Source: Eledone cirrhosa
Taxonomy: Eukaryota
DNA: 64,000 bases
NCBI GenBank assembly: GCA_964016885.1
Contig: OZ024743.1
Location: 348,564,001-348,628,000, forward strand
Direction of reading: 5' to 3'
Position numbers and translations under genes: made by a program. The notes under the pieces are model-generated. The model made no database searches and was not told the DNA's origin. It saw only the letters and a program-made list of their open reading frames with translations. Shown in pieces: positions 9,993-50,652 of the stretch (position 1 is the first letter of the stretch; each line of letters opens with the position of its first letter).

Positions 9993-10445
9993 TCCCCTTG
10001 TTTGCTGAAAATTGAAATAAGTGACATTGTCACTACTTTAAAACAATAGCGTAAGGTCTTCAAAATGCTTTTAATCAAGCATGCAATGTATTGCAAAATG
10101 CACTATATACGCATTCATATATATATCGCTATTTCAGGGCGCCAATTCTAATTTTCCGTTTCTGCTGGACCGGCAAACCGCTCTGTATAGACATTTCCTG
10201 ATTATTACTGGAATTCTATAAGAATCCAATATTCATAATTTTCAGCAAACAGGAGGAGTGGTGAGCTTTGATAAGTACCAACAAGTACGAAACAGAGCTC
10301 TGTCAGATTATCTCCTCTTGTTTGCTGAACATTGAAATAAGTGACATTGGCACTTCTTGAAAACCATAGCGTAAGGTCTCAAACATGGTTTTAATTAAGC
10401 GTACAGTGTATTGCAAAATACACTATGTATACATTCATGTATATA
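9993..10445 (+). mobile_element. Retrozyme-like non-coding element, ~1.4 units of a 320-nt repeat, copy 1
   Basis: TTGTTTGCTGAA at 9998 and 10318 (period 320). HHR-like motif 10263-10310. Embedded in (TA)n. Homologous to 50300-50652. Confidence 0.8.
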
Positions 10446-10552
10446 TATATATATGTATATATATATATATATATATATATATATATATATATATATATAT
10501 ATACGTGTGTGTGTGTGTGTGTGTGTGTGTGTGTGTGTGTGTGTGTGTGTGT

Positions 10553-10720
10553 GAAGGCGCGTGTCTTAATGGTTAGATCATTGGGCTTGCAATCGAAATG
10601 TTGTGTGTTCAATTAACGGACCGGGTGATGTGTTGTTTCCTTGAGCAAACACTTTTTCACGTTGCTCCAGTTTACACAGCTGTAGAAATGAGTACCGGCT
10701 TGCCACTGGGTTGGCGTTAT
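10553..10720 (+). mobile_element. tRNA-derived SINE of a second family, CORE/V-like central domain
   Basis: A-box-like TAATGGTTAG, B-box-like GTTCAATT, then TCCTTGAGCAAACAC...TTGCTCCAG...GCTGTAGAAATGAGTACC. Confidence 0.6.
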
Positions 10721-10848
10721 CTTATGGCTAAAACACCACGACGTCGTGTAACCAGCGGCGCCGACTGACGCCCGACAGACTGGTCGGTCAAGGTGATCAA
10801 GGTGATATATATATATATATATATATATGTGTGTGTGTGTGTGTGTAT

Positions 10849-11335
10849 GTAAAGGGTAAACAGAAATAACCACACAATCGGTACAGTATATGGAAGGTAT
10901 ATATTAGGTTAACGGTTGATATAGCAGGAAGAGGGTCTTAACCTTTCGGACGTAAGTCCTTTATCAGAAGAAAGAATGTGAAATAAAATAGATTGAAGGG
11001 ACGGGCGGGATGGATTTGGAAATATATATATATATATATTCGTTGGATTTTCTAATTGTATTTTCACCCCGAAACTGAATACCAACCCCGAGTATACCTG
11101 AACGTCCACCTTCTTCTTGTCACCCGTCTATTTTCATCCGCACACCAGTACATTCACCATTCCAATTCCAACCAGCCCGTCCATTCAATCTATCTTATTT
11201 TAAATTCTTTCTTCTGATGAAGGATTAGCGTTCGAAACGTCAATACCCTCGTCCTGCTATATCAAGCCTTAACCTAATATATTCCTTCCATTTACTTTAC
11301 GGATTGTGTTGTTATTTTTGTTTACCTTTTACATA
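10849..11335. repeat. Inverted pair of PLE pseudo-LTR family A, carrying an HHR
   Basis: Arms ~10849-11008 and ~11173-11335. CTGATGA(11214)-AGGATTAGCGTTC-GAAA-CGTC. Same family at 43300-43478 and 43852-44050. Confidence 0.8.
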
Positions 11336-47600: not shown

Positions 47601-49668
47601 TTATGTGCCTGAAAATATGTGCGATTATGCATAATTATAACCGCTTCTACGTATGTATTTTGTATACTCATATATCGTATGTTATTAATCTTTCATGTCA
47701 TAACTGCATATCGGTCTGTATTATATACATGTATTCCTTCCTATTTGTGTACACACACACTCACACATACACACATGCACACAAACACAGACATATGTGT
47801 GTGTATAAATATATAGGTATATATATATATATATATATATATATATATATATATATATATATATGTATATATATATGTGTGTGTGTGTGTGTGTGTGTGT
47901 GTGTGTGTGTGTGTGTGTGTGTGTGTGTGTGTGTTACCATCTTATCTTCGCAGTTATCTGTGACATTTAAAAGCCATAAACAAGAAGAAACACTTTAAAC
48001 GTGAGAAGATACACGCCCATGAAATAACATATTTTCTCAGGGATCCGTCAAAATTATCGCATATATTTTATCCTATGCATACACATTTGTAAACATCTAT
48101 TTGAACAGACACACACATACCCGTTTAGGCATGCATAAATGTATGCAATTATGTATTTATATTTGCAATTATCAGGAAATAATTTTAAATCAGTTACTTG
48201 TTACACACACCTACTAACACACAGGCACTTATATATATATATGTATGTATATATATATATAATATATATATATATATATATATATATATATATATATATA
48301 TATATATATATATATATATATATATATATATATATATATACACGGAGAGAGAGAAAGTTACTCACACGCAGGCGAACACACACACACTCACACACACGCT
48401 CATATATATATATATATATATATATATATATATATATATATATATATATATATATATATATATATATATATATATATGAATGTATATGTATGTATGTATG
48501 TATACGTATGTATTTTCATATGTAGATACGTATTTCATAACCTATATTGCATGTTAGAGTAGATGTACATCTTATTACAAGTAGCAAATTTATAGGAAAT
48601 ATATGCTGAAATATGCTCAAGAAGTCTTAAAAGTGTAGCTTAAAGTGCAATTATTCAGATGGCAACGCTGAACCGATGTCGATATATGCAAATATCTATT
48701 TTCCTGTATGCGGGTGAATGATAAATTCTATATATAATAACTTTATACTCACAGAAGTAAGGAAGCCTTAGAAATTTAAAGTATTTTACTTTCAATATCG
48801 CTGCATCTGTCCTAATCGTAGAGAACATTGGCAAATATTTATATTATGAGTTTTTATATAAGTACCAATTTAATTCTTTCGTACACATATCTCCTTCAGT
48901 TTCTGTATGTATGATCTGGCTTCATTTATTTCTTCTCTGTCACAGAAATAAGTTTCTTTCTACTTAATTGAGACAACGTGGACTACATAGTCATTTTACC
49001 TATGCCTGGAAGTATGTTTAACTGTCTATATGTATGTATATATGTGTTATCTTTGTAAGCATATGTACGTGCGTGTATGTAGGTATGTATGTGTATGTAT
49101 GTATGTGTGTGTATGTGTGTATATATGTGTGTATGTATATACGCATGAGTGAATATATGTGTGTACATTCGTATATGTATATATATATATATATATATAT
49201 ATATATATATATATATATATATATATATATATATATATATATATATATATGTATTGAAGTATTCATGTAAATACGTGAATGCGTGCATCGTTATATTTTG
49301 ATTGATATATGTATACATACACATGCATGTTCCTATTTCAATACGTATATATATATGTACTTACTACAGTCTGGACGTCATGCATATTTTGCTCATTTTT
49401 AATTTTATTAATGATATGTAGCGGCATTTTTAAAATCATTCATGTCATTTCCGTCTTTTGCGAAACCCAGCTCCTCATGATTGGTACTGAAGTAAGGTGT
49501 TACATAAAAAGAAACTCTCAGAATAAAAACAGGGGGCATTTATAATCTATAATAGTTGTCTAGCATCTGCTAATGGTTTCGTCTACATGCTTCCTAACGC
49601 CTGTTCTCACAATGATTTCTGATCTGTTATGCATATATTTTACAGAGCTTTTGCTAACATTCAGCCAG

Positions 49669-49841
49669 ATCGGTAGAGGGTCGGACGCCATGCTTTGACG
49701 CATAGATTAACGGCCCTGCCATTCTGAGTTCAAATCCCGCCGAGGTTAACTTTGCGTTTCATCCTTACGGGGTCGATAAAATAAATTACCAGTAATGCAC
49801 TGGGTAATTGCTGGCCTTGTGCCAAAAGTAGAAACAATTAT
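49669..49841 (+). mobile_element. Main-family SINE
   Basis: Matches the family consensus. Confidence 0.88.
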
Positions 49842-50299
49842 TTCATATTATGGATAAATACCCCATCCACATTACTTTATCATTTTAGCAACAAGAGAGA
49901 TTTGATTATCTTTTCAAAAAGTTTCTTATGAAGTGTGTCGCTTGTTTTGTGATAATTGCAGAGGCAGCATAGATCGTTTCATCCCGCCGATTTGTTTAAC
50001 CCAGTATTACTTTTGTGCGTCATATATTTGACTAAACTCCAATTGACCAATCAATTTTGAGGTTTGATTGGCGTTGGACATTCATTGATTTAGACTCAGA
50101 AATATGTGCAATATAAATTGCCGTTCGAAATATATTTTGATTTTCAAATAAAGATGAGAAAATTCTACCATAAGAACATGTAGTTTTGTTGCAAAAGCAA
50201 AGACTTACAAAGATCTTAATACCGTTGTAATCTATGTGCGTGTTTAAATATCAAAATGTCTTTGTAATGGATCACCAGCCCTCCAAGATGCATACTTTA

Positions 50300-50652
50300 C
50301 ATACATATATCGCTATTTCAGAGCACCAATCCTAATACCTAAATTTTGCTGGAACAGCAATCGCTCTGTATAATCAGCTCCTGATTATTACTGGAATTCT
50401 ATAAGAATCCAGCTTCTATAATTCTTCGGCGGAAGCAGGGGTGTGTGTCGCTCTGACGAACGCCAACCAGCGTGAAACAGACTGTCAGCTTCTCTCTCTT
50501 CTTTCGCCAAAAAGAAGTAAGTGACATAGTCACTACTTTAAAACTGATAGCGTATGGTCTTCTAAATAATGTTAATTAAACATACGGTATATTGCCAAAT
50601 ATACTATACATACATTCATGTATACATCGCTATTTTAGAGCACCAATCCTAA
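50300..50652 (+). mobile_element. Retrozyme-like element, copy 2 (period ~317)
   Basis: CGCTATTT..GAGCACCAATCCTAAT at 50311 and 50628; homologous to 9993-10445 but with permuted ends. Confidence 0.82.
50450..50490 (+). ncRNA. Hammerhead ribozyme, intact core
   Basis: GCT-CTGACGA-ACGC-CAACCA-GCGT-GAAA-CAGACTG-TC-AGC; cleavage predicted after GUC at 50486. Confidence 0.9.

Follow-up and report, generated by a model that had tools for sequence, protein, structure and literature searches.

A dispersed ~320-nt hammerhead repeat family of Eledone cirrhosa with insertions resembling those of Penelope-like elements

The non-LTR (non-long terminal repeat) retrozymes of metazoans, for example the 350-390-nt repeats of Mytilus, are short, low-GC, non-coding units that carry a type I hammerhead ribozyme (PMC7229834; bioRxiv 10.64898/2026.07.22.740005). 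The mover of animal retrozymes is unsettled, and for this role Penelope-like elements (PLEs) were proposed, chiefly on the grounds of co-occurrence and of similar terminal repeats (PMC7229834; bioRxiv 10.64898/2026.07.22.740005). PLEs that encode an endonuclease (EN+ PLEs) leave insertions with an optional tail of 30-40 nt, partial tandems, 5' inversions and a bias towards microsatellites (PMC8557442), and the tail of the anole PLE is bounded by two internal start sites for reverse transcription (RT) downstream of the hammerhead (PMC11167929). Here we consider a 64,000-nt stretch of the Eledone cirrhosa genome (assembly GCA_964016885.1, contig OZ024743.1, positions 348,564,001 to 348,628,000; hereafter the window), which holds two copies of a ~320-nt hammerhead repeat. 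The repeat belongs to a non-coding family, dispersed over many contigs, with at least three subfamilies. We think it very probable that this family is a new non-LTR retrozyme, a self-propagating unit of ~317-334 nt with PLE-type mobilisation, a judgement that leaves aside whether an RNA circle is involved.

The family resembles the metazoan non-LTR retrozymes in its type I hammerhead, its short, low-GC, non-coding unit, its thousands of candidate copies, its dimers, the presence of at least one array and its coexistence with PLEs, but it consists mostly of dispersed copies of about one unit each, and two of its three subfamilies carry a U3-A8 pair in the ribozyme core. Whereas the published link to PLEs came from co-occurrence and similarity to pseudo-LTRs (pLTRs) (PMC7229834; bioRxiv 10.64898/2026.07.22.740005), the link drawn here comes from insertion anatomy. 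With EN+ PLEs of the Neptune/Poseidon type (PMC8557442, PMC11167929) the family shares the optional tail of 30-40 nt, partial tandems, an inverted 5'-truncated arm, a (TA)n bias and a hammerhead upstream of two internal 3' ends; unlike them, it has no open reading frame (ORF), its unit closes on itself, and none of the autonomous families sampled has homology that can be aligned with it. MRC1 and other non-autonomous PLEs of Chlamys (PMC8557442) are comparable in being non-autonomous and in their pLTR-type and head-to-tail insertions, but such elements as a rule have 3' sequence in common with an autonomous partner, and among the 35 loci examined no such partner came to light for the family described here; the same source reports a Chlamys PLE group without canonical hammerheads. 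Judged by its sequence, then, the family appears to behave as a non-autonomous EN+ PLE and to fit the features of non-LTR retrozymes. It is an expected kind of element. What it would add is a PLE insertion signature seen copy by copy, and RNA positions (+133 and +166, counted from the predicted cut site) at which a PLE enzyme would start.

Ends and insertion anatomy

The two copies and the features associated with them in the window are as follows.

9744..9993: TA-rich tract that flanks copy 1 at its 5' side
9989..10438, + strand: copy 1 (subfamily c1), ~1.4 units, ending 3' at site A (+134, counted from the cleavage site)
10241..10330, + strand: predicted type I hammerhead of copy 1, with core TTGATAA at 10268-10274 (U3-A8), stem II GTAC/GTAC, palindromic stem III and extended stem I; predicted cut after 10304
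10440..10503: (TA)n tract directly after site A of copy 1, the likely target
50288..50654, + strand: copy 2 (subfamily c2), ~1.1 units, ending at site B
50424..50512, + strand: predicted type I hammerhead of copy 2, with core CTGACGA at 50453-50459 (C3-G8) and stem II ACGC/GCGT; predicted cut after 50486
50620..50652, + strand: optional "tail" of 33 nt, between the 3' end sites A (50619, +133) and B (50652, +166)
50652..50693: (TA)n tract common to the 3' ends of copy 2 and of a tRNA-bearing element treated below

As the initial annotation of this stretch had it, there are two homologous non-coding elements with periods of 320 and 317 nt, and they are 75% identical across 333 nt. Copy 1 repeats 137 nt of itself at period 320 (9989-10126 versus 10309-10446, 85% identity), and its 5' end lies ~5 nt past a cleavage-site position. 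In copy 2, whose 5' boundary can be placed only to the range 50288-50305, the self-repeat covers 33-48 nt at period 317 (50305-50337 versus 50622-50654, 94%). Copy 1 is thus A-ended with a long 5' overlap, and copy 2 B-ended with a short one.

The annotation had also proposed that the ends of the copies are circularly permuted, which we tested by tabulating end points in loci sampled from the genome, counting from the predicted cut site (the first base after GTC is 10305 in copy 1 and 50487 in copy 2). Two sites separated by 33 nt account for most 3' ends, A at ~+133 and B at +166 to +170; site A is blurred to +141 because the unit's own sequence there is TA-like. Among similarity-picked loci, from which duplicates and two ruler loci were excluded, 98 of 110 end at A or B (28/29, 23/27, 22/25 and 25/29 by query). 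Because sets picked in this way are biased by the query, we added a motif-picked set of 37 loci (20 + 17), assembled by stepping through the first 100 listed places for each ribozyme pattern, and in this set A or B is the end point of 32 of 37 loci, where 13% would be expected (p 2e-23). This makes the ends polar and fixed, without circular permutation. The terminal redundancies of the two window copies do start at different points, as had been noticed, but the cause is two fixed 3' ends combined with 5' truncation at variable points.

Other aspects of the insertions point in the same direction. A microsatellite lies directly 3' of 77 of 98 loci, versus 16% in flanks, although part of this excess can stem from the TA-like sequence of the unit at site A. 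An inverted arm is present in 18 of the 37 motif-picked loci; a head-to-head arm was found in 60 of 122 loci, with both outer ends at A or B in 43 of these, one in 16 and none in one. Loose contig ends with TA at the same two sites were seen in contigs of two runs from one sample, which are possibly the source of the assembly and so not independent; the three runs used are contigs of unrecorded kind from one study with at most two samples, and are uninformative on expression. Insertion features of EN+ PLEs are present, namely a fixed 3' end with a 33-nt optional tail, 5' truncation, partial tandem, inverted arm and microsatellite bias, and by analogy with described elements we take the tail, partial tandems and inversions to be a PLE signature. 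The suggestion that this is a retrozyme family linked to PLEs is supported by the fixed 3' ends, the tail, the microsatellites and the inverted arms.

A search of the genome (3.0 Gb, 1,796 contigs) with three queries gave 2,396, 2,960 and 3,472 first-look candidates, 40 of which were scored per query. Exact matches to the ribozyme pattern numbered 394 for the copy-2 type and 592 for the copy-1 type, and reversed-pattern controls gave 0. A third subfamily, with a period of 328-334 nt and 179 matches to a 22-nt motif, was found via a loose contig end; this divergent end had been considered as a lead to an autonomous partner and proved to belong to a non-coding subfamily. Across the family the unit is 317-334 nt long with a GC content of 37-39%. 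No ORF starting with ATG exceeds 48 amino acids in three multi-unit copies (longest 36-48), and the RT and GIY-YIG ORF of an autonomous PLE is absent from the unit, whose longest ATG ORF has 48 amino acids. Lengths in the motif-picked set range from 169 to 654 nt with a median of 342, and as many as 3.5 units follow one another in register, the unit closing on itself. Two tandem hammerheads occur in three of the 37 motif-picked loci, and in neither window copy.

We note several unusual loci. A ~7.9-kb cluster of the copy-1 type (L224:9675 to L184:7670; G000:C1:268.923-268.931 Mb) holds 19 hammerheads, with inversions, and shows a ~1160-nt higher-order repeat. One multi-unit insertion is present three times at G000:C4:58.6-59.0 Mb (L132, L129, L135), probably through segmental duplication; at L132 a ~20-nt direct repeat stands on both flanks, a single case, judged by eye, of a possible target-site duplication. 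Two loci (L042 and L170) join units from different subfamilies in register, which suggests either re-insertion into the TA end of an older copy or template switching.

A literature search for this family, including the topics of octopus hammerheads and cephalopod Penelope elements, found no description, Repbase, Dfam and supplements lying outside what it covered, and the words "ribozyme" and "hammerhead" are absent from the main text of the Octopus vulgaris repeat annotation. The family may be catalogued in Repbase or Dfam under another name.

The hammerhead ribozyme

In each window copy one type I hammerhead fold can be located, as had been proposed, on the strength of its motif and of covariation across the family. 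By folding alone copy 1 stands out (z -7.6) and copy 2 does not (z -1.4, with 19 of 200 shuffles folding as well). Stem I of each window copy has a private mismatch adjoining the core. The structure was assessed in an alignment of 73 full-length copies from the three subfamilies (30/30, 29/30 and 14/24 loci kept), in which 93.2% of cells are complementary versus 82.1% after shuffling and 24-50% in slid controls, and double-sided changes occupy 249 cells versus 101 in shuffles. The pairing that extends into the flanks, noted earlier for copy 2, holds in 94.2% of cells over the 73 copies, and stem III varies yet stays self-complementary across subfamilies. Stem II had been described as fully covaried between the two window copies; both sides do change at three of its four pairs, but the fourth pair does not change in this way.

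The core of copy 1, TTGATAA, had been thought decayed. It instead carries a compensatory U3-A8 swap that is subfamily-wide: T3/A8 occurs in 99 of the 100 copy-1-type matches listed (of 592), and C3/G8 in 95 of the 100 copy-2-type matches listed (of 394). Over the 73 aligned copies the 3-8 pair is UA in 42, CG in 29, UG in one and something else in one. The C3-G8 and U3-A8 sister subfamilies thus amount to a natural covariation experiment on the catalytic core. A compensatory U3-A8 core variant has been reported for Schistosoma PLEs (PMC4209133), and the hammerheads of the Schistosoma Cercyon PLE described there share with those of the present family both the core swap and a stem III of the dimer type. 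Here, unlike in Cercyon, the two core types are found in sister subfamilies of one non-coding unit, and stem I is long and extended. The palindromic stem III is predicted to form an intermolecular duplex of -8 to -22 kcal/mol, versus 0 to -2.5 for the hairpin, and would represent a dimer-type design like that of PMC4209133; ribozyme activity is what we infer from this structure.

Mobilisation and the RNA template

Candidate GIY-YIG sequences number 10,596 in the genome, and we looked for a partner of the family in 35 loci drawn from the 150 matches listed. One frame of 938 amino acids combines an RT domain (E 2e-6, just under the Pfam cut-off) with a GIY-YIG domain and has the Cys motif of Neptune/Nematis, and there is a hammerhead in both of its flanking repeats. 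At least three autonomous Neptune-like families with U3-A8 cores are represented among these loci (L091-L125) and in the flanks of others; in three of them stem III is palindromic, the ends precede (TA)n and the distance from cut to end is 123-203 nt. Our best guess for the partner, made on architecture only, is the family of L092, L102 and L123. With blastn and nhmmer the 35 loci yielded only a copy of the family inserted at L092, a diverged short fragment at L096 and a different hammerhead repeat at L116. Three pairs of ribozymes 4-5 kb apart had been candidates for a pLTR-ORF-pLTR arrangement; one was an array and two were separate or duplicated copies, with no PLE ORF. Several further hammerhead repeat families were seen in unrelated flanks.

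We propose that the RT-endonuclease of a Neptune-like PLE would copy the unit in trans, nicking (TA)n, often on both strands, and starting RT at one of two internal RNA sites. RT would then proceed upstream, through the ribozyme and on to the unit before it, until the enzyme drops off, which would yield copies of 0.5-3.5 units. In the case of the anole PLE, AT-rich DNA is nicked and extended on both strands (PMC11167929), and this, together with the two RT starts of that element, would explain sites A and B as well as the two-sided arms. Given its palindromic stem III, the ribozyme is predicted to cut as a dimer and in this way to free monomers from transcripts two units long, and the circle formed from such monomers might be the usual template, a step for which we judge the chances to be about even.

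Several results weigh against this proposal. Among the 35 GIY-YIG loci, neither blastn nor nhmmer revealed an autonomous element with sequence alignable to the unit. Rfam detects no hammerhead in the window at either its gathering or its E-value thresholds, and so the assignment of the ribozyme rests on motif and covariation. Two of five covariation measures, those that count pairs and pair types, fail against shuffles (204/500 and 81/500) because the changes amount to few subfamily-level events. Within subfamilies the median pairwise identity is ~90%, and since the closest pairs reach only 98% there is no sign of a current burst and the family looks old. Finally, cleavage is not needed for insertion of the anole PLE, for which uncut RNA is the main substrate (PMC11167929). 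A neighbouring ~271-nt family, described below, has the same anatomy with no hammerhead detected, and thus weakens the need for circles made by a ribozyme.

The last two points bear chiefly on the circle, and they favour an alternative that we regard as a serious possibility, if short of even: that the same PLE mobilisation uses as its template uncut linear read-through RNA of multi-unit loci, with the hammerhead trimming this RNA or riding along. Two tandem hammerheads do occur in three of the 37 motif-picked loci, the ~7.9-kb cluster holds 19, loci extend to 3.5 units, dimers of mixed subfamily exist (L042, L170) and only four of the 37 copies reach 1.5 units. The fixed 3' ends are compatible with a circular template but give no evidence for one, because read-through RNA from multi-unit loci explains them equally. 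On the other hand, 22 of the 37 copies have a length of at least 315 nt and keep their register across the cut site, and loci with two ribozymes are few; since the anole enzyme appears to need RNA beyond its start site (as inferred from PMC11167929), one-unit products would need a two-unit or a circular template. The 5' ends of the motif-picked set show no pile-up at the cut site, the pairs of the hammerhead are kept through compensatory change, and the retrozymes of mussel, coral and axolotl accumulate as circles (PMC7229834), all of which speaks against an uncut linear template. A related idea, the form in which the initial annotation had put it, is that RT starts at random on a circle and rolls, giving circularly permuted copies. 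Copies do exceed one unit in register across the cut site, and diagnostic variants are held in common more often by segments that overlap within an insertion than by different loci (143/164 and 67/75 versus 56% in c1; 62/87 and 24/26 versus 62% in c2, in which many polymorphic columns are G/A or C/T and may reflect recurrent decay). Rare variants are likewise shared at 3.5 versus 0.28 per 1,000 columns. However, such sharing is expected from any homogeneous source and fits circle and linear multimer alike, the rare variants shared are few (53 versus 642 unshared), some of them come from loci that resemble later local duplications, and 3' ends fixed at two sites make random starts highly improbable.

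Two further explanations would dispense with a self-propagating unit. If each copy were a dead-end terminal fragment (pLTR plus tail) of an autonomous PLE, made afresh every time, the family would resemble the fragments that are common for PLEs, and fragments of other families are indeed present in the window. We think this unlikely, for in the mapped loci the hammerhead is preceded, and the tail followed, by the same 317-334-nt unit and never by an ORF or a long untranslated region (UTR); the three subfamilies have diverged as closed units, and no sequence is held in common with the PLE UTRs tested. That the family is satellite DNA spread by recombination at the DNA level might be suggested by the one cluster with a ~1160-nt higher-order repeat and by some locally duplicated units, but copies that are mostly dispersed, about one unit long, and equipped with polar ends and inversions leave this hardly credible. 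A retrozyme mobilised by a PLE is thus the explanation we favour.

A neighbouring tRNA-bearing family

The (TA)n tract at the 3' end of copy 2 also adjoins an element of a separate family.

50694..50915, - strand: element of a ~271-nt family with PLE-type ends; tRNA-like module at 50801-50872

This family (loci L225-L244 and L067; 1,691 candidates, 322 exact 30-nt matches) has 96-98% identity and so appears to be younger than the hammerhead family. Its 3' ends in 19 loci fall 12 times at one site, six times at a second ~40 nt further on and once elsewhere, a count biased by a query that ended at the first site; the elements adjoin (TA)n, and partial tandems as well as inverted arms occur. In 17 of the 19 loci ARAGORN places a tRNA in the middle of the unit, with Rfam scores of 38-44 bits. 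No hammerhead came up when one copy was scanned under relaxed settings, and Rfam found no ribozyme in three loci, although Rfam also missed the hammerhead of the ~320-nt family. Local alignment of the tRNA-bearing family to the hammerhead family or to one PLE junction gave no significant likeness.

The ~271-nt family is a candidate for a PLE-mobilised element resembling a short interspersed element (SINE). It is conceivable, though we consider it doubtful, that the Neptune-like PLEs of this genome sustain a whole guild of small parasites with circular RNA and exchangeable processing modules, the circles arising by self-cleavage of hammerhead dimers in the one family and with the help of a tRNA-like fold in the other. 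The fold would then replace the ribozyme, acting as an RNA polymerase III promoter and as a cut site for host tRNA processing. Were this so, the ~271-nt family would be a PLE-mobilised, tRNA-derived, SINE-like element, and the two families would provide a natural test of circles as a PLE template. Judged from search listings, the literature held nothing on point about a tRNA-derived element mobilised by a PLE.

The window and its surroundings contain other hammerhead repeats as well. Near ~35889 on the + strand lies a member of a different hammerhead repeat family with a palindromic stem III, found also at L116:9062 and 9573, whose match to the profile of the ~320-nt unit is weak (E 1e-4). At ~15800-16150 two terminal-repeat fragments of the autonomous Neptune-like family of L106 stand in inverted orientation to one another, both of them with a U3-A8 hammerhead, and ~15 kb downstream of the window (L115; G000:C4:348.64 Mb) a 502-amino-acid frame of the same family has a GIY-YIG match.

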